Assembly (NCBI GenBank): GCA_965203355.1
Contig: OZ241889.1
Coordinates: 3,424,001 to 3,488,000, forward strand
Direction of reading: 5' to 3'
DNA: 64,000 nucleotides
Source: Candidatus Latescibacterota bacterium
GTDB lineage: Bacteria > Latescibacterota > UBA2968 > UBA8231
Numbering within the stretch: position 1 is the stretch's first letter; each line of letters starts with the position of its first letter. The notes under the pieces are model-generated. The model was not told where the DNA came from. It did not search any database and was given only the letters and a program-made list of their open reading frames with translations. The position numbers and the translations under genes were made by a program. Below, piece by piece: positions 3,618 through 35,889 of the stretch.

Positions 3618-3869
3618 CCCAGAACATCGGGGTCCCATTTCCGTGCCTTGCGGTGTCGCGTGTGCTACTTGAGCAGCAGCATCTTCTGGACGGCGAGGAA
3701 GTCGCCGCCCGCTCGCAAGTGGTCCTGTAGGCTGTCGATCTGACGTTCATAAGAAAATGGGACCCCAGAACATCGGGGTCCCATTTCCGTGTCTTGCGGT
3801 GTCGTGGATGTTACTTGAGCAGCAGCATCTTCTGGACGGCGAGGAAGTCGCCGCCCGCTTGCAAGCGGT
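3618..3869 (-). repeat. Tandem duplication (period 146 bp) of the 3' end of surface protein A plus its terminator
   Basis: 3665-3723 repeats 3811-3869 and encodes HLRAGGDFLAVQKMLLLK*. The flanking CCCAGAACATCGGGGTCCCATTTCCGTG is also duplicated. Confidence 0.92.
3751..3786 (-). terminator. Intrinsic terminator of surface protein A
   Basis: Perfect 12-bp stem AAATGGGACCCC/GGGGTCCCATTT with an 8-nt loop, about 25 nt after the stop; U-rich 3' side on the minus strand. Confidence 0.8.
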
Positions 3870-6800
3870 AGAAGTACATCCCCGACGACACGCTCTGGCC
3901 GCTATCGTTGGTCGCGTCCCACTCCACCGCGTAGCGACCGGCACTCTGATGCTCGGCGACCAGCGTCCGAATCGGCTGACCCAACACGTTATACACGGTC
4001 AGCCCCACGTCCGCCGCCTGCGGCAACGCATACTGAATCGTCGTCTGCGGGTTGAACGGGTTGGGATAGTTGGCTGCCAGCGAGAACACAGCCGGGCGCG
4101 TCTGCACCGAAATCGGCGCGGGCAATGCCAGCCGGTTGAAGCCCAACGCCCGGTCATACGTCTGGCTGTCGGTGATTTCGAGGGTCGTGTGCTCGATCTC
4201 GGTCGTCGGCCGGAAGACTAAGCGCAGCATCAGCTCGCCATCGGCAACGACATCGCCGTGCGCGGCTACCGTCAACACGCCCGCTTGGTCGGCCAGTACC
4301 TGCGGCGTAGCGAATGCGCTATCGCCCAGCGGCTGATCGGTCTGCGCCTCGACGAAAGTTAGCTGGTCGGCGTCATACGCTATCTGCAAGCCGTAGCCTT
4401 TGACCGCTACGAAGTCGGTCAACCGCACATTAACGACGAAATCCTCTCCCACGCTCGGCAGGGCTGTCGGCGCGTCCAGATACAGCCGCGCATCCGCATT
4501 CAGCCCGGCCTGCAACGCCACCGGCTTGCCAGCGCCGCTGTTGAACCGATCGAACAACGAACCGAGGTCGACAAAATCCAGCATCGCGTTGATTGTAATC
4601 GTGAACATCAGCGAGACGCTTTCGTCGCCCGCTATGGCCGTGTAGGTGACCTCAACGGCCCCATCGGTCGCCGCTTCCGGCGTCCCGGAAATCGTCCGGG
4701 TCGCCGCGTCAAACGACAGCCCGGCTGGCAGACCCGACACGCTATACGTGATGGCTCCCTCGCCGCCCAGTGCCATCGGCAGTTCCAACGAGTGAATCGC
4801 CGTGCCCGCCGTATAGGCATGTGCGGCAATCGAAGCACCCTCGACGAAAGACAAGGGAATCATCATCTCCTTATCGTCCATCATGCTGCGGTCCGTGTCC
4901 GTCAGCACCAGCGTCGCCGAACCCGCCGTCAAACCCGGTATCATCGCGTTGATCACAATCGTCTCGTCACCTTCGGCCATGCCGTCGGCTGTCGGATCAA
5001 CCAACAGGCGGGTCGAACCCATAATCGAACCGGCGGCAATGGTAATCGTTGGATCGAACAGGGCCGAGTAGTCCGTGTCGCGGGTGGCACTACTCGAAAT
5101 CTCATCAATCGAAACGGTCGCCGTGGCGTCCTCGGCCAACGGCTTGCCGTCCAGCGCGGCCATGACCATTACTTCCGTCAACTCGGCGGACTCGCTGAGC
5201 GCGCTCGGCATCACCGACACGACCAAAGACGTGCTGGCGGTCTCGTCGTCGGAAATCCGCAAGTCCACCTGCCCCCAGCCGCCCGAAGACACCGCCCGGA
5301 TCCCCAAGTGCTTATGACCGTCCGCCGAAGCGTTGTCAATCGGCGATAGGAAAAGCGTCGTCGAACCGACCTTTTCCCCGGCCGCAATGGTGATCGTCCC
5401 CGCCAACGTCGCGGTGTAATCCACGTCGCGGGTGGCCATCGCGCCGCTGGCGGGCGGCACAATCGTGAAGCGGACCGTCTCAGCCGCCGGAGCCGCCTCT
5501 GACAAGGTCGCTGTAATTCGGATTTCAGCCGTGTCGCCGTTTTCGCGCACGGCCGATTGCGAAGCCATCACACTGGCGACGCCCACGGTGACCGGCGGGG
5601 CCTCGCTGACCGTGATGGTGAAGGTCTTTGCGCCGCTATCGCCGTCGCCATCGATCACCGTATAGAAGACTTCCGACATACCCGCCATCGTCGGCGTTCC
5701 CGAAAGCGTCCGCGTCGCCGCGTCAAACGACAGACCCATCGGCAGGTCCGACGAGACCCTGTACCGCAGCGTTCCTTGGCCGCCCGTCGCCGCGGGCAAC
5801 ACCGCGCTGAACGCTTGACCTACCGTCGCTTCAAAGGCTAACGCCCCAGCGCCGAAACTCGGTCGTCCCGTGTCCGCGGGCGTATCCGAAGAACCAGAAT
5901 CATCCGTCATCGCCGCGTCTTTCAGCGTAATCTTCGCGGTGCTGACGGTGATCTTGTCGGCGTCTTGGTTCTTGAGATTGTCCGTGAGTTGCTTGATCGT
6001 GATCGTCTCGTCGTTGTCGTCTTTGCCGTCGTTGACCGGCTTGATCGTGATCGTCGTCGAGCCGGTGATCGCGCCGTGCGGAATCGTCAGCGAGCTAAGT
6101 GCTGCCGTGTAATCAACGTCCCGCGTCGCCGACTTGTCCGGCGTCCGATCCACGACCAAGGTGATCGTCGCCGCCGCGTCGAGCACCTTGCCGTCTAACG
6201 TGCCCGTAACCGTAACCGTCGTCGCCCCGGCGTCCTCTTTGATTTCACTCGGATTGACCGACAGCGTAATTTTTTCGCTCAGCGTCTCATCATCCGTGAT
6301 CGTGAACGTCTCCTCCTTCATCTGATCTTTTTCGTCGCCGACCTTCGCTTTTACCGTGAACGTCCACGGATCATTCTTACCGCTGTTGTTCGTCGGGGTG
6401 ACGCGCAGCATGGCCGTGCCTTTGGTGTCGCCGGCCGGGATCGTCAAGCCCTCAATGACCTCCACCTCGTAATGCACATCGCGCGTCCCGGAAGAACCCG
6501 GCGTAATCTGAAAGTCCACCGTCTTAGAGCCGGTTAAGGCCGCCGCCAATTCAACGTTCATCGCAACGTCCGTCGCCCCGCTTTCCTCGCGGATCGTCGC
6601 CGGACTCAGCGTAAATTTTTTGATCTGCGCCACCGCAACGTCCTCAACCGTGATGATGCCCGGATTGACCTTAATACGAACGACAAAAGAGTCCACATAC
6701 TTTAGCGTTACGGCCGCATCTCCGTAATTCCTCTGGAAAGTATCGCCGAAGTCGTTATCGCCGTTAAAGTCGATTTGATAACCATGTGAGACTTTTCGTT

Positions 6801-8310
6801 TGGATGGTACCTCGGTGATGCCAGGACCGCCGGTGGTCCAATCAGCGCACGTTTGTGGGTTCGAATCCGTTGCATCGAATAAGCAGAGACCTACCTCCGA
6901 TACTACCTTACCCTGGGGCACCACATACTCATCTAAAAGATCGCCATCCGCGAAAAGGTCGATCCCCAAGTCTGCTTCTACCAAGACGGTCCCCGCAGGT
7001 ACGACATCGGAATCTTTATAACTCGTATTTTGGTAATCCCACCCAAAAAACCCATCACCCTCTGGGTCTGTTCCAATATCCCCATCGCCGTTTAAGTCTA
7101 TACCGATACTTCGGAGGGTCTTTGTGGAGCCTTTAATAAATTGGTCGATATAAGTATTGCTATACTTCATAGCCTCTACTAGAGTCGTGCCTTCTGACAG
7201 GGTAAAACCATCGTCATCAAAGCTACCATCAAGATTAAGGTCGATCCGGACCCGCCGCCCCTCACTGTTCTGCCGTTTTAACTTCAGAATCAGCGTATCA
7301 CTACTGGCCTTCAGCACGATCTGGCCCGCCTTATCTTTCGGATCGAGAGTGAACGTAGTCGTCCCTTCAATCTTACGCCGCGGAACGGTCAGCTTCCCCA
7401 GACCACTAAGCGAGTAATGCACATCGCGCGTCAACGTATCGCTGGCAGCCCCCTTGCCCTCAACAATAGCCAATTGGGTTTCAAGGGTTTCAAGGGCTTG
7501 GGTCTTAAACGCACGGCCATCCAACGTCGCCGTCAATTCAATCGGAGTCGCATCCGCCTGCTTGCTGAGCTTGGACGGCTTAAAAGAAAGGTCGATGTTT
7601 TCGGACAACATCTCATCGTCAATCAGCTCCACATACATTCTCGAATACGTTTTTGTGTATACCTTGAAGCGTATAACAGGATGCTCACCGCCAATATATT
7701 CGTCAGACCGTTTGAAACCAGTTTTATATTTACCACTTTCAAACCGAAACATGATAGGGATATTACCTCCACCGACTAAATCCTCGTTGTTGGCTGGTCG
7801 AGCAAAGCCGTCGTCTTCGAGATTACGCTGAGTTGCAGTTAAATCAATAAAGATAGGCAAAGCCGGACTCATAGCCTGCCTCTCATAGTGATTCCATACT
7901 TTTCTTGTGACATCGGCCTCTGTGGCTGTGGGTGAGGTTGTGAAAGGTCCGACTCGCTTATTGTCTATCGGGGTTATGGTCAGCGTTCCAGTCGCCTTTT
8001 TCTCGCCCTTCTTAATCACGAAATTGGGGGTGGATAAGGTGAAGAAGCCGCCGAGATACTTTGAATAGGGACGCTCATCATCAAAAAGCATCGCAACGCG
8101 AATATCTTCGGTCGCCGCCTTCCCATCCTTTGTTTCTAAGGTCACCGTAATATCTTGTGCCCCCCTGTCCTCGCGGATCAAAACCCGGTCAAAGGAGACG
8201 AATAGGCTATCTTGGGCCGTGGCTTCCCCGGCCAACAGCAAGCTGGCCGCTAGCAACAAAGGCACAAACGCCAACCGCGGCATCGGCACGGACAACTTCG
8301 CATGTATCAT
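3811..8310 (-). CDS. Giant secreted surface protein A (1499 aa): signal peptide, Calx-beta-like and putative Ig (He_PIG-like) repeats, DxxxDG Ca-binding loops, cohesin-like domain, FlgD/T9SS-A-like C-terminal sorting domain
   Basis: Signal peptide ending AGEATA-Q, repeated TRDVDY/LPxGLSFDAATRTxSGTP motifs, and C-terminal NYPNPFNPQTTIQY...GMYFYRLQAG...KMLLLK. Domain names are assigned by motif recognition only. Confidence 0.88.
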   Translation of the reverse strand: MIHAKLSVPMPRLAFVPLLLAASLLLAGEATAQDSLFVSFDRVLIREDRGAQDITVTLETKDGKAATEDIRVAMLFDDERPYSKYLGGFFTLSTPNFVIKKGEKKATGTLTITPIDNKRVGPFTTSPTATEADVTRKVWNHYERQAMSPALPIFIDLTATQRNLEDDGFARPANNEDLVGGGNIPIMFRFESGKYKTGFKRSDEYIGGEHPVIRFKVYTKTYSRMYVELIDDEMLSENIDLSFKPSKLSKQADATPIELTATLDGRAFKTQALETLETQLAIVEGKGAASDTLTRDVHYSLSGLGKLTVPRRKIEGTTTFTLDPKDKAGQIVLKASSDTLILKLKRQNSEGRRVRIDLNLDGSFDDDGFTLSEGTTLVEAMKYSNTYIDQFIKGSTKTLRSIGIDLNGDGDIGTDPEGDGFFGWDYQNTSYKDSDVVPAGTVLVEADLGIDLFADGDLLDEYVVPQGKVVSEVGLCLFDATDSNPQTCADWTTGGPGITEVPSKRKVSHGYQIDFNGDNDFGDTFQRNYGDAAVTLKYVDSFVVRIKVNPGIITVEDVAVAQIKKFTLSPATIREESGATDVAMNVELAAALTGSKTVDFQITPGSSGTRDVHYEVEVIEGLTIPAGDTKGTAMLRVTPTNNSGKNDPWTFTVKAKVGDEKDQMKEETFTITDDETLSEKITLSVNPSEIKEDAGATTVTVTGTLDGKVLDAAATITLVVDRTPDKSATRDVDYTAALSSLTIPHGAITGSTTITIKPVNDGKDDNDETITIKQLTDNLKNQDADKITVSTAKITLKDAAMTDDSGSSDTPADTGRPSFGAGALAFEATVGQAFSAVLPAATGGQGTLRYRVSSDLPMGLSFDAATRTLSGTPTMAGMSEVFYTVIDGDGDSGAKTFTITVSEAPPVTVGVASVMASQSAVRENGDTAEIRITATLSEAAPAAETVRFTIVPPASGAMATRDVDYTATLAGTITIAAGEKVGSTTLFLSPIDNASADGHKHLGIRAVSSGGWGQVDLRISDDETASTSLVVSVMPSALSESAELTEVMVMAALDGKPLAEDATATVSIDEISSSATRDTDYSALFDPTITIAAGSIMGSTRLLVDPTADGMAEGDETIVINAMIPGLTAGSATLVLTDTDRSMMDDKEMMIPLSFVEGASIAAHAYTAGTAIHSLELPMALGGEGAITYSVSGLPAGLSFDAATRTISGTPEAATDGAVEVTYTAIAGDESVSLMFTITINAMLDFVDLGSLFDRFNSGAGKPVALQAGLNADARLYLDAPTALPSVGEDFVVNVRLTDFVAVKGYGLQIAYDADQLTFVEAQTDQPLGDSAFATPQVLADQAGVLTVAAHGDVVADGELMLRLVFRPTTEIEHTTLEITDSQTYDRALGFNRLALPAPISVQTRPAVFSLAANYPNPFNPQTTIQYALPQAADVGLTVYNVLGQPIRTLVAEHQSAGRYAVEWDATNDSGQSVSSGMYFYRLQAGGDFLAVQKMLLLK

Positions 8311-8800
8311 GACTCAACCTCCTGAAGGAAAGCATCGCCCAAGGGCGAAAGGGAAGGGATAGAAGAAAATGGACTTAGCCGTAGAACTAAGCCGCTGCGT
8401 TCTTGCGTTTTTGCTACCGTTGAGCAAGACGAATCCCGCGCGGCGAGCGCGAGGCTACGACGTCGTCGGCCGATAACCGCGAGGCTACCGAGAATGGGGT
8501 TCGTTTGTGATGTGGATGGGTGGCCACTGACCACTGACCACTGGTCAGCGGGGCTTACCGACGCGGCCGGGCAGAATAAGGCCGTTTCCCGCTTCCGTAG
8601 AGGAAGGGGAGCGAGGCAAATAGGTTGGTGAGTGAAGCTAGGGCTTAATGCCCAAGAAAATTCGGGGGGGGGGGTAAGTGTTTGTTTTTTAACGACTTAT
8701 GACGATCAAGTCTCGACGTTATCGCAAGCGTAGAACAAGGCACCGCCATCAGCACCGCTCCCGGCGATGGCGTTCTTTGTGCTATTGACGTTGTGCCCAT
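8307..8800 (-). CDS. Leader ORF of surface protein A, currently frameshifted at a C11 tract (51 aa as sequenced; 164 aa ending in an ATGA overlap with the main start if C12)
   Basis: ATG 8800 gives MGTTSIAQRTPSPGAVLMAVPCSTLAITSRLDRHKSLKNKHLPPPPNFLGH* (stop 8645-8647). One extra C continues as EFSWALSPSFTHQPICLAPLPLRKRETALFCPAASVSPADQW...LQEVES*, homologous to ORF 32910-33245. Confidence 0.6.
8521..8548. repeat. Heptamer repeat TG(G/A)CCAC x3 followed by inverted unit TGGTCAG
   Basis: tggccac tgaccac tgaccac tggtcag; includes the palindrome CTGACCA-C-TGGTCAG. Confidence 0.7.
8664..8699. promoter_or_regulatory. G11 homopolymer followed by imperfect palindrome TAAGTGTTTG-N5-TAACGACTTA
   Basis: Read directly. 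The same arrangement (G12 plus palindrome) occurs at 33102-33138. Confidence 0.75.
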
Positions 8801-8894: not shown

Positions 8895-8924
8895 ATTATA
8901 CAACCTCAGTTAAACGTTTGTCAA
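8895..8924 (-). promoter_or_regulatory. sigma70-type promoter of cassette A (TTGACA-N18-TATAAT)
   Basis: Perfect consensus boxes on the minus strand; equivalent TTGACA-N18-TAAAAT at 33327-33356. Confidence 0.8.
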
Positions 8925-9028: not shown

Positions 9029-9679
9029 TCAGCCGCGCAGGTCGGCGATGACGCTGGCTGGGTCTTGAGCACCGAAGATGGCGGAGCCGGCCACTAAGCG
9101 CTGGGCACCAGCACGGCGGCAGGCGGCTGCGTTGCCGGGATGGACGCCGCCGTCGATACCGACGGACACGGATAGCCCTCGGCGCTCGATTTCCGCGCAC
9201 AGATCGCGGATTTTGTCGAGGGCGGTGGGTTGGAAGGGCTGGCCGCCAAATCCCGGCTCCACGGACATGATCAAGGCCGAGTCGAGTTCGTCGAGATGGG
9301 GATAGAGGGCGGAGACAGGCGTTTGGGGGTTGATCGCAAGGCCGCACTGGAGACCGCGCTGGCGGATGGCGCTGAGGACGGCCCGGAGGTCGGATTCGAT
9401 TTCCACGTGGACCACGAGCGAGTCTGCGCCCGCTTCTTTGAAGGGGCCGATAAAGGGCAAAGGGTCTTGCAACATCAGGTGCGTGTCGAGTTCGAGGCGG
9501 GTAGTTTGGCGCACGGCCGCGACGACCGGCAGCCCAAAGCTGATGTTGGGGACGAAGTGCCCGTCCATTACGTCGAGATGGAGAAAGTCAGCCCCGCCGC
9601 GCTCGACGCGGCCGATGTCCTCGGCCAGGCGGGCAAAGTCGGCGGCCAAGAGCGATGGGCCGATGCGCAGGGTGCTCAC
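9029..9679 (-). CDS. rpe: Ribulose-phosphate 3-epimerase
   Basis: PSLLAADF, HLDVMDGHFVPN, MSVEPGFGGQ, DGG and VAGSAIF motifs. GTG start at 9679 with GGAGG upstream. Confidence 0.97.
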   Translation of the reverse strand: MSTLRIGPSLLAADFARLAEDIGRVERGGADFLHLDVMDGHFVPNISFGLPVVAAVRQTTRLELDTHLMLQDPLPFIGPFKEAGADSLVVHVEIESDLRAVLSAIRQRGLQCGLAINPQTPVSALYPHLDELDSALIMSVEPGFGGQPFQPTALDKIRDLCAEIERRGLSVSVGIDGGVHPGNAAACRRAGAQRLVAGSAIFGAQDPASVIADLRG

Positions 9680-10449
9680 GGCTCCTCCCAACGGTCAAAG
9701 GCATCTGGCTTCGGGGGGGGAGCCGCGGCACTGACGACGAGGTCGATGCGGCTGTGACGTGGGATGCGCTGCTCGCTCGTAGGCTCTTGGGCTAGGACCG
9801 TGCCGCTGCGCTTTTGCTCGTCGACGCGCTTGGCGATGTGGCCGATGCGCAACTCGTATTTGCGCAAGGTGTCCGCCACGGCTTTGATGGACAGGCCGAT
9901 TAGATGCGGGACGCGCTTGAGGGCGGTGGGTGGTCCGTTGCTGATTTGGAGATCAACCGCACTATCGCGCGCAAGCTGAGCACCGGCGGGCGGCGACTGC
10001 CCGACGACCGCGCCTTCGGGGAGGGCGTCTGAAGAGCGGTAGAGAATTTGGCCGATCGCTAGCTGGTTTTCCTCTAGTTGCAAACGCGCCTCGCGCAGGC
10101 TAACCCGGCGTACATCGGGCACCTCGTAGTAGCGCGGTCCTTTGCTCACGGTCAAGACGATGCGCCGCCCTTCTTTGACCAACTGGCCGCCACTGGGATC
10201 TTGATCGACGACCGCGGCCGGGGGAACGGTTTCGTGGTGTAGCGAATCGCCGATGGTCATTTTCAGGCCAACTTCTTCGAGCCGGGCCGAGGCTTCGGAC
10301 GCGAAAAGGCCCTGGAGGGTGGGGACTTGGACGCTGGGCGTGTCAACTAAATACGGCATGATGACCACGTCGAGCAGGAGGAGGGCGATGATGCCAGCGG
10401 TAGCAGCACCCGCCGCGAGCAGGCCCAAGTGGCGCAGGATCTTTTTCAC
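9676..10449 (-). CDS. PASTA-domain membrane protein (3 PASTA repeats)
   Basis: N-terminal TM helix, then three VPxLxG...QxP..G..V...S.G repeats. Start trimmed to GTG at 10449. Confidence 0.88.
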   Translation of the reverse strand: MKKILRHLGLLAAGAATAGIIALLLLDVVIMPYLVDTPSVQVPTLQGLFASEASARLEEVGLKMTIGDSLHHETVPPAAVVDQDPSGGQLVKEGRRIVLTVSKGPRYYEVPDVRRVSLREARLQLEENQLAIGQILYRSSDALPEGAVVGQSPPAGAQLARDSAVDLQISNGPPTALKRVPHLIGLSIKAVADTLRKYELRIGHIAKRVDEQKRSGTVLAQEPTSEQRIPRHSRIDLVVSAAAPPPKPDAFDRWEEP

Positions 10450-27254: not shown

Positions 27255-30200
27255 CTACTTGAGCAGCAGCATCTTCTTGATGTCGAGGAAATCACCGCCC
27301 GCCTGCAAGCGGTAGAAGTACATTCCCGACGACACGCTGTGGCCACTATCGTTGGTCGCGTCCCACTCCACCGCGTAACGACCCGCCGCCTGATGCTCGG
27401 CGACCAGCGTCCGAATCGGCTGACCCAACACGTTATATACGGTCAGCCCCACGTCCGCCGCTTGCGGCAACGCATACTGAATCGTCGTCTGCGGGTTGAA
27501 CGGGTTGGGATAGTTGGCTGCCAGCGAGAACACGGCCGGGCGCGTCTGCACCGAAACCGGCGCGGGCAATGCCAGCCGGTTAAAGCCCAACGCCCGGTCA
27601 TACGTCTGGCTGTCGGTGATTTCGAGGGTCGTGTGCGCGATCTCGGTCGTCGGCCGGAAGACTAAGCGCAGCATCAGCTCGCCATCGGCAACGACATCGC
27701 CGTGCGTGGCTACCGTCAACACGCCCGCTTGGTCGGCCAACACCTGCGGCGTAGCGAATGCGCTCCCGCCCAGCGGCTGATCGGTCTGCGCCTCGACGAA
27801 GGTCAACCGGTCGGCGTCATACGCTATCTGCAAGCCGTAGCCTTTGACCGCCACGAAGTCGGCTAACCGCACATTAACGATGAACTCCTCTCCTACGCTC
27901 GGCAGGGCTGTCGGCGCGTCCAGATACAGCCGCGCCTCCGTATTCAGCCCGGTCCGCAGCGGCACCGGCTTGCCCGCCACGGCCACGCTGCGACCGAAAT
28001 GGTCGGCCAACACGAAGAAGTCGTCGAAGTCAATCGTCCCATTCGGGGCCAAGTCAAACGCTGGATCAAACCCCGCGTCGCCTGCCGTCAAGCCGAAGCG
28101 GTCCGCCAACACGAAGAAGTCGTCGAACCCAATGCGAGCATCCGCGCCGAACAGCCCCAACAGAGCCTGCCCTTGGCTATCGGCCACCCGATTGCGCACG
28201 GCTAACGCGGTATGCTCGACCGAACCGGTCTCGTTGTCTAAGTCGAAGGGCCGCACCTGATAGGTGTAATGCACGCCATGCTGCGCCGTCTCATCAACGA
28301 AGGACGCTACCCCGGACGCCACCTCGGCGACCACGGAAAACGCTTCGTCTCCCACGGCGCGGCGGTAGATGCGGTAGCCATGTACGCCCACGACCGGCTC
28401 GACCGGCGCCGGGCCCAAGGCACCAGCTACGACTCCTTGCAGCACCTGATCCGATGGCGACAGTGTCCACGTCAGCGCGATGCGACCGCCTTGATCGTCC
28501 GGCGCATCCAACACCTGCAACGCTGGCACGGCCAACGGCGCGATGTCGTCGGTCGCCCGCACGGCCTCGGCCGTCCAAGTAATCGACGAACTCAGCACGT
28601 TACCGACGACATTTAGCTTCGGTGCCACGCCGCGAGCGTAGGCTAATGCTTCCGGCAGCAACGATGCCAACACCGGACCCTCACCGCCCTGCGCGGCAGC
28701 GCGGCTGGCTTGCAGCGTCGCCGCCATCTGCGCGTAGGGCTGCGTCAGGTCGTCCGCCTCGACGAACACGGCTTTGGCCATCGTGTGCGTGGTGCGGCCA
28801 CCTTTTTCGGCGGCAATGCCCCAGCGCGTCGAGACGTTGTCCAGCGTCGCCACGATGGCGCGGCCCATCGCTACGCCGGGCACGGCATCTACTCGCGCCC
28901 ACGGCACCATCTCATTTTCCAGCACCGGCAACGCACGGAAAATGCGATAGCCGTCCAGCGACTTATGATCGGCCGATAGCTCCCAAGACAGCATCACGAA
29001 ACCGCCTTGGTCGCCTTGGCCGTCCGCACCTTTGTAGTCCTCGGCGACCAGGTTTGTCGGCGCCGACAGCGGCGGCTCCACCACCGCCATGCTCAACGGC
29101 AGCGACTGACTCGCGCCGCTGGCATCTACGACCGTGTAGGTCGCAACCGTCTCGCCCATCACCGTCGGCGTCCCGGAAATCGTCCGGGTGGCCGCGTCAA
29201 ACGACAGTCCCGTCGGCAGCCCCGACACGCTATACGTCAGCGGCGGGGTGCCCCCGGAGACCGCCGGCAACGTCAGGTTTGCCGGCACGTTAATGGTGAA
29301 TTGAATCATGTTGTCGGTGTGCGAATCCGCCGGATTGGCCTTGCCAGCACCGCTGTTGAGACCGAACAACGAACTCAGGTCGCCAAAGTCCAGCATCGCG
29401 TTGATGGTAATCGCGAACGTCAGCGAGACGCTTTCGGCACCAGCCATCGCCGTGTAGGTGACTTCAACGGCCCCATCGGTCGCCGCTTCCGGTGTCCCGG
29501 AAATCGTCCGGGTCGCCGCGTCAAATGACAGTCCCGCTGGCAGATCCGACACGCTATACGTGATGGTGCCTTCGCCGCCTAACGCGACCGGCAGCACCAA
29601 CGGCGTAATCGCCGTGCCCGCCGTGTAGGTGTGTGCGGCAATCGAAGTGCCCTCGACGAAAGCCAAGGCGATCATCATATCCTTATCGCCGTCCATATTG
29701 TCGTCCATCATGCCGCGGTCCGTGTCGGTCAGTACCAGCGTCGCCGAACCCGCTGTCAAGCCGGGCAGCATCGCGTTGAGCACAACCGTCTCGTCGCCTT
29801 CGGCCATGCCGTCGGCGACCGGATCAACCAACAGGCGCGTCGAACCCATGATCGAACCGGCCGCAATGGTGATGGTCGGATCGAACAGGGCCGAGTAGTC
29901 CGTGTCGCGTATGGCACTACTCGAAACCTCATCAATCGAGACGATGGCGGTGGCGTCCTCGGCCAGCGGCTTGCCGTCCAGCGCGGCCATGACCATCACT
30001 TCCGTCAATTCCGCCGACTCGGGGATCGCGCTCGGCATCACCGACAGCACCAAAGACGTGCTGGCGGTTTCGTCGTCGGAAATGCGGATGTCCACCTGAT
30101 CCCAACCGCCCGAAGACACCGCCCGAACCCCCAAGTGCTTATGACCGTCCGCCGAAGCGTTGTCGATGGGCGATAGGAAAAGCGTCGTCGAGCCGACCTT

Positions 30201-32897
30201 TTCCCCGGCCGCAATGGTGGCGGTCCCCGCTAACGTCGCGGTGTAATCCACGTCGCGGGTGGCCATCGCGCCGCTGGCCGGCGGCACAATCGTGAAGCGG
30301 ACCGTCTCGGTGGCCGAAGCCGCTGCCGACAAGGTCGCCGTAACTCGGATTTCAGCCGTATCGCCGTTTTCGCGCACGGCCGATTGCGAAGCTACCACGC
30401 TGGCAACGCCCACGATGACCGGCGGAGCCTCGCTGATGGTGATGGTGATGGTTTTTATCCGGCCATCGCCGTCGGCATCGAACGCCATGTAGACGATCGA
30501 GGACATGCCCGCCATTGTCGGCGTCCCGGAAAGCGTCCGGGTGGCCGGGTCAAACGACAGCCCGGCCGGGAGGTCCGACGTGACGCTGTACATCAGCGTT
30601 CCTTGGCCGCCTGTGGCGGCGGGCAACACCTCGCTGAACGCTTGCCCTACCGTCGCTTCAAAGGCTAATGCACCGTCGCCAAAGGTCGGTCGTCCCGTGT
30701 CCGTGTCCGCGGGCGTCTCGGAAGAATCAGAATCATCCATCATCGCCGCGTCTTTCAGCTTGATCGTCGCGGTGCTGACCGTGATCTTCTCGTCGTCTTG
30801 GTTCTTGAGGTTGTCCGTGAGCTGCTTCAGCGTGATCGTCTCGTCGTTGTCGTCGGTCCCGTCATTGACTGGCGTAATCGTGATCGTCATCGAGCTAACG
30901 ACCTCGCCGGCCGGAATCGTCAGCGAGCCAAGCACTGCCGTGTAATCCAGATCCCGAATCGCCCTCTTTTCAGCCGTCCGATCCAAGCCCAGCGTGATCG
31001 TCGCATCCGCGTCGAGCACCTTGCCGTCTAACGTGCCGGTCACCGTGACGGTCGTCGCCCCGGCGTTTTCTTTGATCTCACTCGGGCTGACCGACAGCGT
31101 GATGTTTTCGCTCAGCGTCTCATTGTCCGTGATCGTGAACACCACCGAATCCATTTGAGACGCTTCATTGCCGACCTTCGCTTTCACCTGGAACTTCCGC
31201 GGCTCATTCTTACCGCTGTCGTCCACTGGCGTGACGCGCAGTGTCGCCGTGCCCTTGGTGTCGCCCGCCGGGATCGTCAAGCCCTCAATCACATCCACCT
31301 CGTAATGCACGTCGCGCGTCCCACCCCCCGACACCGCCGTAAGCTGAAAGTCCACCGCCTTCGCGCCGGTTAAGGCTTTCTCCAATTCAACGTTCATCGC
31401 AACGTCCATCGCTCCGCCTTCCTCGCGGATCGTCGCCGGACTCAGCGTGAACGCCTTGAGCGTCGCAACCGCAACGTCCTCAATCGTGATGGTGCCCGAA
31501 TTGACCGTAACCGGAAAGGCAAAAGAGTCCATGTGCTTTAACGTGTCCCCAGTACCGAACGTGTAAGCCAAGCCGCCATCGCCGTCAAAGTCGATGGCAC
31601 CGACTCTCTTTACTGAGGATTCGCTTCCTGCGATTTTGTCTCCGCTTGCAGGGAATAGGTAGAGACCTACTTCCGTTAATACGCTATCGGCGGGCACCAT
31701 ATAGGTATCCAAATAATCGCCATCCCCGAAAAAGTCGATCCCCAAGTCTTTTTCTACCAAGATGGTTTTCGCCGGGACGAAGTCGGATTCACCGAAACTG
31801 TCATTGCTAACCGTAAACCCAAAATACTCATCACCATCTGTGTTTGTCCCAACATCCCCATCGCCGTTAAAGTCCACTCCGTAAATAGTGTTATTCCCAC
31901 TGGTGCTTTCAGGCGCAGTGGCGTTTTCGGGTATGATATAATCATCGCCGTCAAAGGTCCCATCAAGGGTCAAGTCTAGCCTTACCTGCTTGCCCTTATG
32001 CATCCGCCTGTTGATCTTCGCCGTCAGCGTAGCATTCTGAGGCCCAATTATGATCGTGCCGGCCTTATCTTTCGGATCGAGGGAGATCGTAGTCGTCCCG
32101 TCGATATGCCGCTTCGGAACGGTCAACTTACTCAGCCCAATCGAGTAATCCACATCGCGCGTCAATGTACCGCCAGAAACAACCAAGAGAGTTCCAAGCT
32201 CTTGGGTCGTCAACGCGCTGCCATCCAACATCCCCTTCACTTCAACCGAAGTCGCATCCGCCTGCTTGCTGAGCTTGGCCGGCTTGAAAGAAAGGTCAAT
32301 CTCCGTGGGCACCTGATCGTCATCAATGATTTCAATATAGAAGACGCCAGTAGCAGTAACAGTACTACTCTCTCCCGCAGTATTTCCCTCAGTATAGCCC
32401 GGGGTGGTTTGGCCTTTTAAGGCGATGTTTCCAGTAGAACCCCCTATATCAACAACGATGGGAATATTAGGCCGCATTTTAACCTTAGACGTATCGACCG
32501 TACCCGTTATGGTCAGGGTATCAATATCCACTGAAGCGTCGCCCGAGCTAGCTCCGATCAGAGCATTGTTTGTCGGGGTTACGGTGATAGTCCCGGTCGC
32601 CTTGCGCTCGCCCTTCTTAATCACCAAAGAGGGGAAGGAGATTGTGAATAAATTGTTGAGATAGCGGGACGTGACACCGACGAGACTCATCGGAAGATAA
32701 AGATCGCCCTTCGCCTTCGCGTCAGCCGTTCGCAATTCGGCTGTTATCTCAATATCTTGCGCCCCTCCATCCTCGCGGACGGAACGCCGATCAACGGATA
32801 TGTCGATATTCTCGGTCTGAGCCATAGCCTCGCCGGCCAACATCAAACTGGCAATCAGCAAACAAGGAAAGGTAAAAAGCCGCGTGTGCGTACTCAT
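27255..32897 (-). CDS. Giant secreted surface protein B (1880 aa), paralog of A with extra Ig, FN3-like and EF-hand/dockerin-like modules
   Basis: Signal peptide ending AGEAMA-Q. C-terminal half nearly identical to A; extra segment carries IGFDDFFVLADRFG / IDFDDFFVLADHFG. Same C-terminal sorting domain. Confidence 0.9.
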   Translation of the reverse strand: MSTHTRLFTFPCLLIASLMLAGEAMAQTENIDISVDRRSVREDGGAQDIEITAELRTADAKAKGDLYLPMSLVGVTSRYLNNLFTISFPSLVIKKGERKATGTITVTPTNNALIGASSGDASVDIDTLTITGTVDTSKVKMRPNIPIVVDIGGSTGNIALKGQTTPGYTEGNTAGESSTVTATGVFYIEIIDDDQVPTEIDLSFKPAKLSKQADATSVEVKGMLDGSALTTQELGTLLVVSGGTLTRDVDYSIGLSKLTVPKRHIDGTTTISLDPKDKAGTIIIGPQNATLTAKINRRMHKGKQVRLDLTLDGTFDGDDYIIPENATAPESTSGNNTIYGVDFNGDGDVGTNTDGDEYFGFTVSNDSFGESDFVPAKTILVEKDLGIDFFGDGDYLDTYMVPADSVLTEVGLYLFPASGDKIAGSESSVKRVGAIDFDGDGGLAYTFGTGDTLKHMDSFAFPVTVNSGTITIEDVAVATLKAFTLSPATIREEGGAMDVAMNVELEKALTGAKAVDFQLTAVSGGGTRDVHYEVDVIEGLTIPAGDTKGTATLRVTPVDDSGKNEPRKFQVKAKVGNEASQMDSVVFTITDNETLSENITLSVSPSEIKENAGATTVTVTGTLDGKVLDADATITLGLDRTAEKRAIRDLDYTAVLGSLTIPAGEVVSSMTITITPVNDGTDDNDETITLKQLTDNLKNQDDEKITVSTATIKLKDAAMMDDSDSSETPADTDTGRPTFGDGALAFEATVGQAFSEVLPAATGGQGTLMYSVTSDLPAGLSFDPATRTLSGTPTMAGMSSIVYMAFDADGDGRIKTITITISEAPPVIVGVASVVASQSAVRENGDTAEIRVTATLSAAASATETVRFTIVPPASGAMATRDVDYTATLAGTATIAAGEKVGSTTLFLSPIDNASADGHKHLGVRAVSSGGWDQVDIRISDDETASTSLVLSVMPSAIPESAELTEVMVMAALDGKPLAEDATAIVSIDEVSSSAIRDTDYSALFDPTITIAAGSIMGSTRLLVDPVADGMAEGDETVVLNAMLPGLTAGSATLVLTDTDRGMMDDNMDGDKDMMIALAFVEGTSIAAHTYTAGTAITPLVLPVALGGEGTITYSVSDLPAGLSFDAATRTISGTPEAATDGAVEVTYTAMAGAESVSLTFAITINAMLDFGDLSSLFGLNSGAGKANPADSHTDNMIQFTINVPANLTLPAVSGGTPPLTYSVSGLPTGLSFDAATRTISGTPTVMGETVATYTVVDASGASQSLPLSMAVVEPPLSAPTNLVAEDYKGADGQGDQGGFVMLSWELSADHKSLDGYRIFRALPVLENEMVPWARVDAVPGVAMGRAIVATLDNVSTRWGIAAEKGGRTTHTMAKAVFVEADDLTQPYAQMAATLQASRAAAQGGEGPVLASLLPEALAYARGVAPKLNVVGNVLSSSITWTAEAVRATDDIAPLAVPALQVLDAPDDQGGRIALTWTLSPSDQVLQGVVAGALGPAPVEPVVGVHGYRIYRRAVGDEAFSVVAEVASGVASFVDETAQHGVHYTYQVRPFDLDNETGSVEHTALAVRNRVADSQGQALLGLFGADARIGFDDFFVLADRFGLTAGDAGFDPAFDLAPNGTIDFDDFFVLADHFGRSVAVAGKPVPLRTGLNTEARLYLDAPTALPSVGEEFIVNVRLADFVAVKGYGLQIAYDADRLTFVEAQTDQPLGGSAFATPQVLADQAGVLTVATHGDVVADGELMLRLVFRPTTEIAHTTLEITDSQTYDRALGFNRLALPAPVSVQTRPAVFSLAANYPNPFNPQTTIQYALPQAADVGLTVYNVLGQPIRTLVAEHQAAGRYAVEWDATNDSGHSVSSGMYFYRLQAGGDFLDIKKMLLLK

Positions 32898-32909
32898 GAT
32901 CTCACTCCT

Positions 32910-33245
32910 TTAGAAAAGGGAAACGGGATAGAAGAAAATGGACTTAGCATTGGTCGGTGGTCGGTGGTCAGTGGTCAGTGGCCAGTGGTCGGTGGGGCTT
33001 GCTGACGCGGCCGGGCAGAGCAAGGCCGCGTCTCGCTTCCGCAGGGGAGCGCGGAGAATGGGTTGGCGAATGAAGCTATGAAGCTCAATGCTCCAGAAAT
33101 CGGGGGGGGGGGGTAAATCATTGTTTTTTAACGACTTATGACGATTGAGACTCGGCGTTATTTCAAGCGTAGAATAAGACACCGCCATCGCATCGAGCAC
33201 CGCTCCCGGCGATGGCGTTCTTTGTGCTATTGACGCTGTGTCCAT
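32910..33245 (-). CDS. Leader ORF of surface protein B (111 aa), in frame through a C12 tract, stopping at the RBS of the main gene
   Basis: MDTASIAQRTPSPGAVL...HKSLKNNDLPPPPDFW...SFIRQPILRAPLRKRDAALLCPAASASP; ends TAA-AGGAG-7nt-ATG. Homologous to 8307-8800. Confidence 0.62.
   Translation of the reverse strand: MDTASIAQRTPSPGAVLDAMAVSYSTLEITPSLNRHKSLKNNDLPPPPDFWSIELHSFIRQPILRAPLRKRDAALLCPAASASPTDHWPLTTDHRPPTNAKSIFFYPVSLF
32951..32992. repeat. Heptamer repeat TGGYCRG x6
   Basis: tggtcgg tggtcgg tggtcag tggtcag tggccag tggtcgg, inside the leader ORF. Confidence 0.85.
33102..33138. promoter_or_regulatory. G12 homopolymer followed by imperfect palindrome TAAATCATTG-N5-TAACGACTTA
   Basis: Read directly; equivalent to 8664-8699. 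Confidence 0.75.
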
Positions 33246-33326: not shown

Positions 33327-33356
33327 ATTTTATGAATTTTAGTAAAGGCTTGTCAA
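33327..33356 (-). promoter_or_regulatory. sigma70-type promoter of cassette B (TTGACA-N18-TAAAAT)
   Basis: Positionally equivalent to the cassette A promoter. Confidence 0.72.
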
Positions 33357-33534: not shown

Positions 33535-35889
33535 TTAGTACGCCACGGCGATGGTGCGGAGCGCGGTGTCCTCGCCGGCGTCGGCCCCCAGATTGACGCG
33601 CAGGACGTACAGACCGGGGGCGGTGCTCGCTCCGTCGGCGGCGCGGCCATCCCAGGTGAAGAGGCGTTGCGAGCCTTCAGTGCCTGGCGTGAGAGCCGCT
33701 ATCTGGCGTCCGGCTAAGTCGAAAATTTCCACCTGTGGCTCGCTCCCTTCCACTTTGAAGGCGACGAATCGCACTTCGAGTTGGTCGTTGATGCCGTCGC
33801 CGTTGGGGGTTACGGTGGCCGAGGCCAGTTGCAGGTCGCTGATGAGTTGGCTGCGGCTGGTCAGTTCGGGCAGCATGACGACGTTGGAGCGGCGTTTGGC
33901 CGCCTCGACCGACTGCCACAGGCCCGGTGCGTTGCTCGATCCGAGGTCGAGGGCAAAGACGGTGGCGTTTTGCAGCAGGCGGGTCGTGAATCGCACTTGC
34001 AGCGAGTCGCCGGAAACCACCTGCGGCAACGCGATGAACAGCGAATCGGCTTGCATGTCCAAGGTGGCTGGAACGACCTGTTCTGCGCCGACCCGCACCG
34101 ATACGCTTTGGAGGTCAACCGGCTCGGGGACCGTAAAGCGCATCAGGTCGAAGCCGCTGTCGAGTTCGTCGGCCTCGGGCCAGAGGGTGTAGGTAAAGTG
34201 CGTGTCTTGGTTGGGGCTGGCCTCGCGAGGGACGACGCTGCCGCGTGCGCCTTGGACTAAGGCGTTTTCGTACTCGACGGAAACCGAACGGACGGTCGGG
34301 GCGACCGCGGGGTCGTCGGTGGCGAGGATCATCTCCAGCCACATGAAGCGGCGAGGGCTGGCCGATTTGAAGGACTCACCGGAAAACTGGTACACGTTGC
34401 TCCAAGCGTCCCAATCCTCGCCGACCACCAGCGTGGTGTCGATGGAACCGCGCAGTACTTTGGGCGAACTCTTCCATTTTTCTTCGGTGATTTCTTCGCC
34501 GAGCTTATTGTGGAACGCAAAGACCGACGACAGCCCGTTGCCCGAACGCGAGCGCAGTTGCATCCGGGTGCCCGGCGGCAGGTCGGCGTCCCAGTGGAGC
34601 GCCTTGATGACTTTGGGCCGCCCATCGCCAGCTTCCTCGCCGAGGTTGATAAAGGCCGACTGCAACTCGACTTGAGCCGGATAACCCGGAGAGAACAACT
34701 GCATTTCGCCCCACTTGACGATGCCCCACCCCCTACAAGTGACGCCGTGCCAGAACAGGTAGCGAGCCTTGCGCGGCGCGAACAGGTAGCGCATGTAAAG
34801 CAGGTTGTCGGCGTTGGGATCCAGATGCGTGAAGACCTGTTCGTAATCGACGTTTTCGGGCACTTCGACGAGGGGGGCGGTGCCCGTGGCCGGGGTGCCA
34901 TCGGAAAAGAGGAGGGTGTGCCCGGGCCCGGTGCCGGAGATGGTAAAGCCCAAGGTGCCTTCGTCGGGCTGCATGGAGTAGATGAACATTTCGTCGATAA
35001 AGAACGTCGCGCCTAAGTCGGCGCGGAACCACGTGCCGCCTTCGGTCCATTCCGCCAGCGTACCGCGACAGTCGGTGACGGTGTTGTTGGTATTGAGGTT
35101 GGCGTCGAAGAGGTTGAAGGTGGATCCAGTGCCATCGCCTTCGACGAAATTGCCGCGCTGGCTGGTGCCGATGGCGATGTTGTCGCCGATGCCGATGACC
35201 TCGATTTCGGCGATGGCGGCGTCGGCGTTTTGCTCTTCGGAAATGATTTGGATGTACTGGATTAGCTGATAGTGGTCGCGCTCGGCCGGCGTTACGTTCA
35301 AGTCCGGGTCGATCACGAGGGCGCTGTCGCGGCCGGCGTAGCGCAGCGGGATGACGATTTCGGATTCGGCGTTGGGGCGCGTGGTGCGGAAGGCTTGGCG
35401 ATAGAGAAAGAGGTCGTCCGTAGCCGAGATCCGTACGCCCGAAGTGGTAAAGACGCGGAATTGACGGAACGGGCGCGCGCCCGCTTGGTCCGGGAATTTC
35501 AGGCGAATCTCACGGGCCAGGGCGGCGCGGCCTAGGTCGATGGTGATAAACCAGTCCTCGCGGGCGTCGTCCGGGCTGGGTTGCCAATAGGTGGTTGGGT
35601 CGCCGTCGATGGCCAGCCGAGCGTCGGCCTCGTTAGAGCCGGCTTGCCAGACGCCGCCAGCGACCGCATCGCCGCGGGTGCGGGTCTCGTGGACGAAGCG
35701 GTGCGCGTCCGCGACGAGGTTGATGTCCTTGCGGAATTTGACGAGCGAAAGCTGTCCCTGCTCGCCGACTTGGATCAAGCCGAAGGGCTGTTGCCATTGG
35801 GTCCATTCCTCGGTGCTGTCGAAGGAGAGCATGTCGGCCGCGAGTGGGGCTGCTAACACGAGGCCGGCGATGATGGCGCGTCGCATCAA
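33535..35889 (-). CDS. Secreted protein with discoidin/F5-8-like region and FlgD Ig-like (gliding-motility-associated type) C-terminal domain
   Basis: Signal peptide, AIDGDPTTYW...IDLG, and C-terminal TPNGDGINDQL...WDGR..DG...PGLY...IAVAY. Confidence 0.82.
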   Translation of the reverse strand: MMRRAIIAGLVLAAPLAADMLSFDSTEEWTQWQQPFGLIQVGEQGQLSLVKFRKDINLVADAHRFVHETRTRGDAVAGGVWQAGSNEADARLAIDGDPTTYWQPSPDDAREDWFITIDLGRAALAREIRLKFPDQAGARPFRQFRVFTTSGVRISATDDLFLYRQAFRTTRPNAESEIVIPLRYAGRDSALVIDPDLNVTPAERDHYQLIQYIQIISEEQNADAAIAEIEVIGIGDNIAIGTSQRGNFVEGDGTGSTFNLFDANLNTNNTVTDCRGTLAEWTEGGTWFRADLGATFFIDEMFIYSMQPDEGTLGFTISGTGPGHTLLFSDGTPATGTAPLVEVPENVDYEQVFTHLDPNADNLLYMRYLFAPRKARYLFWHGVTCRGWGIVKWGEMQLFSPGYPAQVELQSAFINLGEEAGDGRPKVIKALHWDADLPPGTRMQLRSRSGNGLSSVFAFHNKLGEEITEEKWKSSPKVLRGSIDTTLVVGEDWDAWSNVYQFSGESFKSASPRRFMWLEMILATDDPAVAPTVRSVSVEYENALVQGARGSVVPREASPNQDTHFTYTLWPEADELDSGFDLMRFTVPEPVDLQSVSVRVGAEQVVPATLDMQADSLFIALPQVVSGDSLQVRFTTRLLQNATVFALDLGSSNAPGLWQSVEAAKRRSNVVMLPELTSRSQLISDLQLASATVTPNGDGINDQLEVRFVAFKVEGSEPQVEIFDLAGRQIAALTPGTEGSQRLFTWDGRAADGASTAPGLYVLRVNLGADAGEDTALRTIAVAY

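Follow-up and report, generated by a model that had tools for sequence, protein, structure and literature searches.

Two giant surface protein genes, A and B, lie in the window, that is, the whole stretch of 64,000 nt of Latescibacterota DNA that was analysed, and every feature of the two loci is on the minus strand. Giant surface protein A (3811..8310) consists of 1499 aa with He_PIG and FlgD_ig domains and a C-terminal Por_Secre_tail domain, and giant surface protein B (27255..32897) consists of 1880 aa. Both genes have their own strong Shine-Dalgarno sequence (AGGAGG, 8-nt spacing), read from the sequence at 8318..8323 for gene A. The earlier note had proposed that the leaders start at sigma70-like promoters, and a sigma-70 scan agreed: TTGACA-18-TATAAT (8895..8924) in leader A and TTGACA-18-TAAAAT (33327..33356) in leader B match 12 of 12 and 11 of 12 consensus positions, respectively, and are called promoter-like on the consensus match only. 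They were the sole sense-strand sites found in the scan and lie about 220 nt upstream of a poly-C tract in each leader.

In the present phase of locus A, an upstream ORF of 51 codons (8645..8800) runs from an ATG at 8798-8800 to a TAA at 8645-8647. It passes a core motif, CATAAGTCGTTAAAAAACA-N5-TTA (8675..8701), directly 5' of a tract of 11 C residues (8664..8674), which gives poly-Pro codons whatever the frame. One C more or two C fewer would select a long post-tract frame of 118 codons (8307..8663), whose TGA (8307-8309) overlaps the main ATG (8308-8310) as ATGA; with C12, the upstream ORF would be 164 codons long. The remaining two post-tract frames stop after 5 and 7 codons. Within the long frame lie a heptamer repeat of 2.9 copies (8524..8543) and, 62 nt before the main ATG, a terminator-like hairpin with a T-rich tail (8372..8393). 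At the equivalent position, the leaders of another Candidatus Latescibacterota genome (G001, see below) have a hairpin with a different 3' arm.

At locus B, the tract has 12 C residues (33102..33113), preceded by the core motif (33114..33140), and the upstream ORF is in its long phase (32910..33245; 111 codons). Its TAA (32910-32912) abuts the AGGAG (32905-32909) and ends 12 nt upstream of the main start. The other two post-tract frames stop after 4 and 41 codons. Inside the upstream ORF is a heptamer array of 6.4 copies (32951..32995; CTGACCA on the sense strand), inverted relative to that of locus A. The upstream ORF in the window has a poorly spaced Shine-Dalgarno-like AGGA, separated from the ATG by 1 nt. 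Under the switch model set out below, C11 would place locus A in the OFF phase and C12 would place locus B in the ON phase. The coordinates, tract lengths and ORF ends agree with those of the earlier note, including the 164-codon frame that one added C would open at locus A, and the heptamer repeats it described are real. Its statement that the other two frames stop early holds at locus A, but at locus B only for the frame of 4 codons and not for that of 41.

The two leaders are about 85% identical, with one pre-tract indel of 6 nt and post-tract indels of 1, 2 and 6 nt, as had been described, whereas the first 140 CDS codons show 41% amino-acid identity and a pS of 0.54. The leader is far better conserved than the adjoining CDS between A and B.

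We compared these leaders with other genomes of the phylum. G001, a metagenome-assembled genome, has 13 full leaders that are 77-80% identical to those of the window, each preceding a paralog of the same giant family. The leader ATG is conserved in all 15 family leaders (window plus G001). In more distant genomes, the core motif is the sole part of the leader that matches; among 167 genomes, 26 have it followed by poly-C, one of them in as many as 36 copies, whereas the reversed control gave a single match. The motif keeps its nucleotides even at loci where the ORF reads it in a different frame (G023, G025). A -1 frameshift site, UUA AAA AAC, was considered and rejected, being at odds with the loci in which the motif is read in a different frame. 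Among 76 loci, 59 are of the upstream-ORF type and 15 carry motif and tract in the 5' end of the main CDS, which is the classical arrangement of a phase-variable gene. The downstream products include fn3, cadherin-like, Calx-beta, LRR, WD40 and T9SS-tailed proteins, a PEGA lipoprotein, HlyD, GT2 glycosyltransferase, GDSL/SGNH hydrolase and arylsulfotransferase; they are of the sort usually phase-varied. An exact 23-mer of the leader had no match in the genome-contig and metagenome-contig collections searched, and a later metagenome scan found one contig. The 111-aa ORF of locus B had no relative among called proteins of 61-195 aa. No part of the window matched Rfam 15 at the gathering score, and the leader gave only a chance-level snoRNA match (E 0.18).

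At 74 of the 76 loci, an ORF that begins with ATG runs into the tract, and in 33 of these that ATG lies 42-44 codons upstream of the tract. The pre-tract frame is free of stops in all 15 family leaders, whereas each of the other five frames has stops in 14-15 of the 15. Within this close family alone, a test of stop avoidance gave P 0.21, which is not significant. The pre-tract frame has no stop in any of 14 diverged sequences, compared with 35 and 42 in the other two sense frames; when the columns were permuted, 0 of 5000 permutations stayed stop-free, with a mean of 31 stops. These comparisons indicate that the pre-tract frame is kept open by selection. The in-frame pN/pS is 0.93 in the close family and 0.82-0.92 in the wider set, the same as out of frame, and changes are spread over the codon positions (22/28/23 and 52/56/58). 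Thus, the upstream ORF appears to be conserved as a frame, with a peptide free of amino-acid constraint. Of the 'conserved leader ORF' of the earlier note, the frame is borne out; the peptide is not, its pN/pS of about 0.9 equalling that of the out-of-frame controls.

The tract is pure poly-C in all 15 family leaders (C11 and C12 in the window, C12-C21 in the 13 G001 paralogs), and it stays pure while the flanks diverge by 20-40%. Over 74 loci, the length ranges from 7 to 24, with residues modulo 3 of 25/25/24; interrupted tracts occur at a few loci, for example, L077, L075, L060 and L026. Orthologous loci also differ in length (L025 C14, L061 C12, L028 C12, L034 C15). The ratio of ON to OFF among upstream-ORF loci is 17:43, near one third ON. 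The loci thus combine a long uninterrupted homopolymer with lengths that differ among copies and orthologs over three phases, as in contingency loci. MutS is encoded, so the tracts are not in a repair-deficient background. On the window leader, many distinct Logan contigs pile up at 90-99% likeness, and there are joints that skip 144-490 nt. At 8663, two additional bases are present in one contig each from X1 and X2, which may come from locus A or a paralog, and in X3 no contig covers 8560-8643; Logan contigs are unable to show minor length variants.

We then consider the frame that follows the tract. In the long phase, 12 of the 15 family leaders end in an ATGA overlap, and locus B, with its stop 12 nt upstream, raises this to 13; L007 and L012 reach ATGA through a frame other than the homologous one. 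The earlier note had proposed to test in paralogous leaders whether a single phase of the tract gives a frame that ends at the main RBS; the test was passed here, and the result extends to independent gene families in other genomes. Compared with dinucleotide shuffles, a frame ending within 50 nt of the main start was found in 8 of 9 discovery families (P 4e-6), 4 of 5 hold-out families (P 0.003) and 12 of all 14 independent families (P 2e-8), with representatives and main starts partly chosen by eye. Both other frames stop at once in only 7 of the 14 families (P 0.08). When a uniform script was run on all 76 loci, the frame ended within 50 nt of the main start in 41 of the 59 upstream-ORF loci and within 20 nt in 33. 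By this automatic rule, 18 of the 59 failed; six further loci passed on inspection. Exceptions, with their offsets, are L013 (+119), L015 (-118), family F9 (-78, -223), H5 (-71) and L024 (+92), as well as L083 and L093; of these, L024, L013 and L015 are failing members within families F7 and F1. For a single leader, an open frame from tract to start appears in 9-28% of dinucleotide-preserving shuffles and is not significant, because the leader is pyrimidine-rich and stop-poor. The significance comes from the comparative data only. An upstream stop a few nt from the downstream start, as in translational coupling, is present in the long phase. The proposal of a switch in a separate upstream ORF that leaves the main CDS intact is supported as an architecture by the family tests and the stop-free pre-tract frame.

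The architecture, its conservation and selection across families and genomes, and the diversity of lengths over three phases are established by these sequence comparisons. We consider it probable that a modular switch, acting by translational phase variation, stands before each giant gene. A small upstream ORF would start at the conserved ATG, usually 42-44 codons before the tract, and would pass the conserved A-rich motif into the pure poly-C tract. Since the tract would be slippage-prone, its length would set the frame of the ribosomes leaving it. In two phases, translation would stop within about 4-12 codons; in the third, it would continue for 60-130 codons across the entire leader and end on or next to the main start, with an ATGA overlap, a stop that falls between the Shine-Dalgarno sequence and the ATG, or one lying a few codons to either side. 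The upstream ORF is presumably translated, the tract probably switches at a high rate within populations, and the main gene would be fully expressed in the long phase only. Ribosomes crossing the leader would block the loading of Rho, or the formation of a terminator hairpin, on the C-rich untranslated leader, and termination-reinitiation would deliver or unmask ribosomes at the main start. Rho is encoded in all three genomes checked (G001, G146, G007), and the leaders mostly contain more C than G. Terminator-like hairpins within the long frame are present in only 9 of 18 leaders examined, so intrinsic terminators are not the general mechanism. The main genes have strong Shine-Dalgarno sequences of their own, so coupling is not obviously needed.

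The frames may instead be incidental, the leader being a non-coding 5' UTR or DNA element whose poly-C and flank act as RNA or DNA: they might be bound by a protein or a G-rich small RNA, form one side of a long hairpin, or serve as spacer within a promoter of an unrecognised type. We regard this as unlikely. It would accommodate the nucleotide conservation of the core motif whatever the reading frame, which the switch model leaves unexplained, and a pN/pS of about 0.9 in all frames. RNAalifold also pairs the post-tract GAUUUUCUUGG with the main Shine-Dalgarno region and predicts a pyrimidine/G-rich hairpin; covariation is almost absent (2 and 3 compensatory pairs) and Rfam gave no match, and, given how little covariation there is, we claim no RNA structure. 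A tract acting outside any frame would not explain a pre-tract frame without stops in 14 diverged sequences against the mean of 31 under permutation, the long frame that ends at the main start in 12 of the 14 families, or the use of the same module to open the main CDS at 15 loci. A related reading, that duplication had passed on a non-coding leader in which the ORF is incidental, was based on the 13 substitutions that separate A from B and on a pN/pS near 1; it was dropped after the wider comparison.

Leader repeats do have precedents. In M. catarrhalis uspA1, a poly-G tract lies in the 5' UTR of a large adhesin gene. The heptamer repeats in the 5' UTR of H. influenzae hmw1 and hmw2 are described as acting via a leader hairpin and RNase III (PMC12721329), and the G-repeat of H. 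pylori tlpB as a target of RepG (PMC8295292). As in these cases, the repeat here belongs to a long leader that precedes a giant surface protein, and the window leaders also carry heptamer repeats and predicted pyrimidine/G-rich hairpins. The known repeats work, however, by RNA structure or sRNA pairing with the repeat outside a translated frame, whereas here the tract lies within an ORF at 74 of the 76 loci, and the long frame of that ORF is linked to the main start. Promoter poly-C tracts are known from Bordetella fim2/fim3 and meningococcal porA/opc. These are likewise poly-C of similar length in a surface-protein multigene family with one tract per copy, but they lie between promoter elements (-35 or activator site and -10), whereas the promoter-like hexamers here lie about 220 nt upstream of the tract and not around it. 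A promoter around the tract was sought by eye and by scan, and no fitting -35/-10 pair was found.

The tract could also matter as poly-proline in every frame, as a stalling or attenuation sensor of the mgtL/mgtP type (EF-P or prolyl-tRNA), with length variation as a by-product. Its CCC runs would give 4-8 prolines in any phase, and Rho is present. Attenuation controlled by an upstream ORF is described for mgtA/mgtL, mgtCBR/mgtP, tna and topAI-toiL, and for mgtA and mgtCBR it is Rho-dependent with proline codons (PMC12360218). The loci here resemble these systems in that translation of a leader ORF with proline codons would decide transcription into the main gene; those upstream ORFs, by contrast, respond to physiological state and not to a heritable change of frame. 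Any base would do at the third position of a proline codon, but the tracts are pure C in nearly all 74 loci, which argues for selection on the homopolymer itself. A proline sensor would, moreover, need no frame-specific layout with one long frame to the main start and short others, and the even spread of phases and the in-CDS versions fit the switch. We find this account doubtful and give it a slim chance. That the tract lengths are assembly errors or inert homopolymers with no switching is very improbable: homopolymer length is error-prone in long-read and k-mer assemblies, and Logan contigs break at the tract, but independent assemblies of 26 genomes among 167 contain both motif and tract, against one reversed-control match, the tract remains pure between diverging flanks, and the surrounding architecture does not depend on exact length.

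The translational phase-variation switch has its closest relatives among contingency loci with repeats in the 5' end of the CDS, such as Neisseria pilC and opa, the Campylobacter poly-G genes and Haemophilus lic1. As in these, a slippage-prone tract would shift the frame of surface-structure genes at many loci per genome, and 15 of the 76 loci here have the exact in-CDS form. Unlike these, 59 of the 76 have the tract in a separate upstream ORF, with the main CDS intact in every phase, and all loci here share a conserved 27-nt flank; we know of no such shared flank in classical contingency loci. The general principle of homopolymer and short-repeat contingency loci has been described (e.g. PMC3546556). 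In Neisseria meningitidis siaD, a poly-C frameshift is reported to cause Rho-dependent polarity (Lavitola et al. 1999, cited in PMC3025981). As in siaD, an out-of-frame tract here would lead to a premature stop, naked RNA and transcription termination, which is the polarity step proposed for these leaders; in siaD, tract and terminator are in the structural gene, whereas here a dedicated leader frame of 60-130 codons would serve. Phase switches that expose a rut site are described for fim and for C. difficile flgB (PMC12360218). They share with the present loci the stochastic ON/OFF behaviour, but, as that source presents them, they use DNA inversion and not a homopolymer. A literature search of limited scope yielded neither an account of a repeat tract within a dedicated upstream ORF nor any report of phase variation in Latescibacteria. 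To judge from the sequences, poly-C in an upstream ORF looks like a new kind of random on/off switch.

More speculatively, the 27-nt motif with poly-C may be a portable cassette, recruited repeatedly before or into surface, secretion and glycan-modifying genes in a Latescibacterota lineage, and the motif may be the cis-site of a dedicated trans-acting factor, active on RNA or DNA, by which switching or read-out would be set or coordinated for every copy in the cell. We attach a low probability to this extension. If true, it would mean a centrally governed, genome-wide set of up to 36 stochastic switches.

To our knowledge, repeat-slippage phase variation is known almost only from cultured pathogens, with the tract in the gene or the promoter. 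The present phylum, which is uncultured, appears to rely on one standard module: an upstream ORF with a fixed motif and poly-C, and a long frame that is linked to the main start. The module leaves the structural gene untouched and has been copied ahead of dozens of genes whose products are surface and eukaryote-like repeat proteins. Should this be confirmed, it would be a new wiring of a heritable stochastic switch into translation-transcription coupling. It would also provide a sequence signature for spotting such switches in metagenomes, and the surface variation of uncultured bacteria would become testable by read counting alone.

Giant genes A (3811..8310, minus strand, 1499 aa) and B (27255..32897, minus strand, 1880 aa) are paralogs, both with He_PIG/Calx-like repeats and a FlgD_ig/Por_Secre_tail C-terminal domain. 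Upstream of each gene is a leader of 450-600 nt with a strong sigma-70-like site at its 5′ end (TTGACA-18-TATAAT at 8924..8895 in leader A, TTGACA-18-TAAAAT at 33356..33327 in leader B). Both leaders carry a homologous ATG-started ORF that enters a poly-C tract. Tract A (8664-8674) is C11, and upstream ORF A ends after 51 codons. Tract B (33102-33113) is C12, and upstream ORF B runs for 111 codons, its final TAA abutting AGGAG. With one C added at locus A, the selected frame (the long frame) stays open for 118 codons, and its TGA overlaps the main ATG. The factual statements of the earlier note that we checked were borne out except one: the other frames had been said to stop early at both loci, which holds at A, whereas at B one stops only after 41 codons.

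Heptamer arrays (CTGACCA type) lie in opposite orientation in leader A (8524-8543) and leader B (32951-32995), with a 20-base stretch common to both; since the unit is 7 nt, a change in copy number would shift the long frame too. No array of this type was found in the leaders of the related genome G001. About 130 nt of leader A (8395-8520, minus strand), containing the direct repeat GTAGCCTCGCG twice, are missing from leader B. Most of this segment is also present in the G001 leaders, so B has apparently lost it. A third T9SS-tailed protein (33535-35889, minus strand, 784 aa; F5/8 type C, CHU_C/FlgD_ig) is encoded upstream of leader B, its end about 180 nt from the promoter-like site; it has no leader of this kind of its own, and the preceding ORF is 10 nt away.

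At the single locus, the long frame is not beyond chance: the leader is pyrimidine-rich after the tract, and 9-28% of dinucleotide-preserving shuffles also had a frame without stops all the way to the main start. Between A and B, the pre-tract ORF showed 13 substitutions with no codon-position bias (pN/pS 1.08). Our first reading from these substitutions was a non-coding leader, which later comparative data went against. Identity between A and B was about 85% in the leader versus 41% in the adjoining first 140 giant-gene codons (pS 0.54), which argues for constraint on the leader.

An exact leader 23-mer had no match in genome contigs or metagenome contigs. A protein-based scan found G001, a complete Candidatus Latescibacterota MAG chromosome with 16 leader matches, 13 of them full leaders 77-80% identical to those of the window. 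All 13 precede paralogs of the same giant family as A and B and carry a pure poly-C tract of 12-21 nt. When A and B were included, the leader ATG was kept in 15/15 and the pre-tract frame was free of stops in 15/15, with stops in the remaining five frames in 14-15 of the 15. The earlier note had proposed to look in paralogous leaders for a frame reaching the main gene, and such a frame was found: in 12 of the 15 leaders its stop, TGA, shares bases with the main ATG (ATGA). The three others are B (stop 12 nt upstream) and loci L013 (119 nt inside the gene) and L015 (118 nt short). At L007 and L012 the frame reaching ATGA differs from the homologous frame, indicating that the region is stop-poor. 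Immediately upstream of one G001 giant-gene leader, a leucine-rich-repeat protein with a T9SS-type tail is encoded (L001, 9100-10000).

Outside G001, with 40 relatives compared, just a core of about 50 nt matched: CATAAGTCGTTAAAAAACA, five variable bases, TTA and poly-C. A pattern search detected this core in 26 of 167 genomes of the phylum (36 copies in G146, 14 each in G001 and G007, 9 in G145), and the reversed pattern, used as a control, matched once in all over the 167 genomes. The downstream genes vary by locus and mostly encode secreted or surface repeat proteins (fn3, cadherin-like, Calx-beta, LRR, WD40, LDL-receptor-B with dockerin, T9SS tails). Further products are PEGA lipoprotein, HlyD-family, GT2 glycosyltransferase, GDSL/SGNH hydrolase, arylsulfotransferase and GSDH-type proteins, and one dynamin-family GTPase. 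In G023, G025 and some others, another frame runs through the motif (...ISRSKTVIYPPPP vs ...HKSLKNNxLPPPP). Within the core (27 nt 5′ of the tract), TAA stops occur in both non-ORF frames (CA-TAA-G, GT-TAA-AA), and these stops just before the tract may explain part of the motif conservation. In G023, with its ORF in another frame, the motif variant GTTTAAAAAC abolishes the stop in that frame. At L021 of G007 (~1540-1700), the core is tandemly duplicated; copy 1 has C21 and copy 2 a decayed tract, TCCCATC.

An ATG-started ORF enters the tract at 74/76 loci, and its ATG lies 42-44 codons upstream of the tract in 33 loci from at least 10 genomes. When 14 diverged pre-tract ORFs were aligned, the reading frame had 0 stops and the other two sense frames 35 and 42. 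All sequences stayed stop-free in 0 of 5000 column permutations (mean 31 stops). What had been described as a conserved leader ORF is thus kept as a stop-free frame, but the peptide is not conserved: pN/pS in frame was 0.82-0.92, the same as out of frame, and changes by codon position were 52/56/58. The stop-free frame, the constant motif nucleotides and the equal pN/pS indicate that selection acts on frame and motif, not on amino acids.

After the tract, one long frame extends for 60-130 codons, and in many loci the other two end within 4-12 codons. A uniform script classed the 76 loci as upstream-ORF type (59), in-CDS (15) or without a main gene (2). The long-frame stop fell within 50 nt of the main start in 41/59 and within 20 nt in 33/59; six more loci, at which the start rule of the script misjudged, qualify by inspection (L028, L034, L042, L026, L081, L090). 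The frame ends in an ATGA overlap in the giant family, the HlyD family (L028, L034, L042), L032, L040 and L043, and in a GTGA overlap at L067. Its stop lies between the Shine-Dalgarno sequence and the ATG at L025, L026 and L061; 4-45 nt before the start at L089, L046, L070, L033, L060, L035, L072 and L023; and 10-44 nt after it in the G146/G145 LRR lipoprotein family, L045, L073 and L078. Because paralogs are not independent, one representative per downstream gene family was tested against dinucleotide shuffles. The long frame passed the main-start test in 8/9 discovery families (Poisson-binomial P 4e-6), in 4/5 hold-out families, found only once the hypothesis was fixed (P 0.003), and in 12/14 overall (P 2e-8), failing in F9 and H5. 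Both other frames stopped at once in 7/14 families (P 0.08).

In the in-CDS loci, motif and tract lie inside the main ORF, a few to about 40 codons in and before the signal peptide (for example L036, MNKNNNLPPPP... into a glycosyltransferase, and L058, L087, L094, L098, L099). A tract within the CDS is the classical contingency-gene arrangement, which argues that the module serves to switch frames. L053, L076 and L056 (G108, G114) have two ATGs in different frames, 14 and 2 codons before the tract, so two of the three phases would give the full protein. At L099, on a metagenome contig (~4260-4420), a canonical GGAGG stands 8 nt before the upstream-ORF ATG; at C9 this ORF continues in frame into the main protein, and a second frame ends in an ATGA at the ATG of the signal peptide, which lies 28 nt beyond the tract.

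Tract lengths were 7-24, with residues mod 3 of 25/25/24, and differed between orthologous loci of different genomes. By phase, 17 upstream-ORF loci were long and 43 not long. This is the pattern that freely switching tracts would be expected to give; a pattern of lengths does not show switching directly. A few loci have interrupted tracts (L077, L075, L060) and would therefore be locked. Four sequencing runs with the region were compared as Logan contigs. One contig each in X1 and X2 had two extra bases at the tract, locus A and a paralog not being distinguishable there. In X3 and X4, the 5′ portion of giant gene A (7636-8055) was covered at far lower contig depth than the neighbouring upstream gene (9064-9800); these depths weakly hint that giant gene A is not in all strains.

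The components of this arrangement are known: repeat slippage, Rho polarity caused by a frameshift in siaD (as cited in PMC3025981), uORF attenuation and invertible switches exposing a rut site (PMC12360218), and repeats in the leaders of adhesin genes (hmw, PMC12721329; tlpB/RepG, PMC8295292). The literature searched yielded no homopolymer in a dedicated upstream ORF with a long frame tied to the main start, and no flank motif common to all such tracts of one genome.

In the long phase (ON), the whole leader would be ribosome-covered, and translation would terminate at the main start. The other phases (OFF) would leave 200-380 nt of RNA, mostly richer in C than in G, untranslated. Rho is encoded in 3/3 genomes checked, and 9/18 leaders have, within the long frame, terminator-like hairpins ending in T-rich tails, among them leader A (8393..8372); L043 has two strong ones. 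RNAalifold predicted pairing between the main Shine-Dalgarno sequence and the bases that directly follow the tract, with no covariation. The C-over-G untranslated RNA, Rho, the hairpins and this pairing favour polarity (through Rho or a hairpin terminator) together with termination-reinitiation. Poly-proline stalling may contribute additionally, and MutS is present. The interpretation offered in the earlier note is supported as an architecture. We regard the full mechanism, a phase-variable upstream-ORF switch of the main gene, as fairly probable. On this reading, locus A would be OFF and locus B ON.
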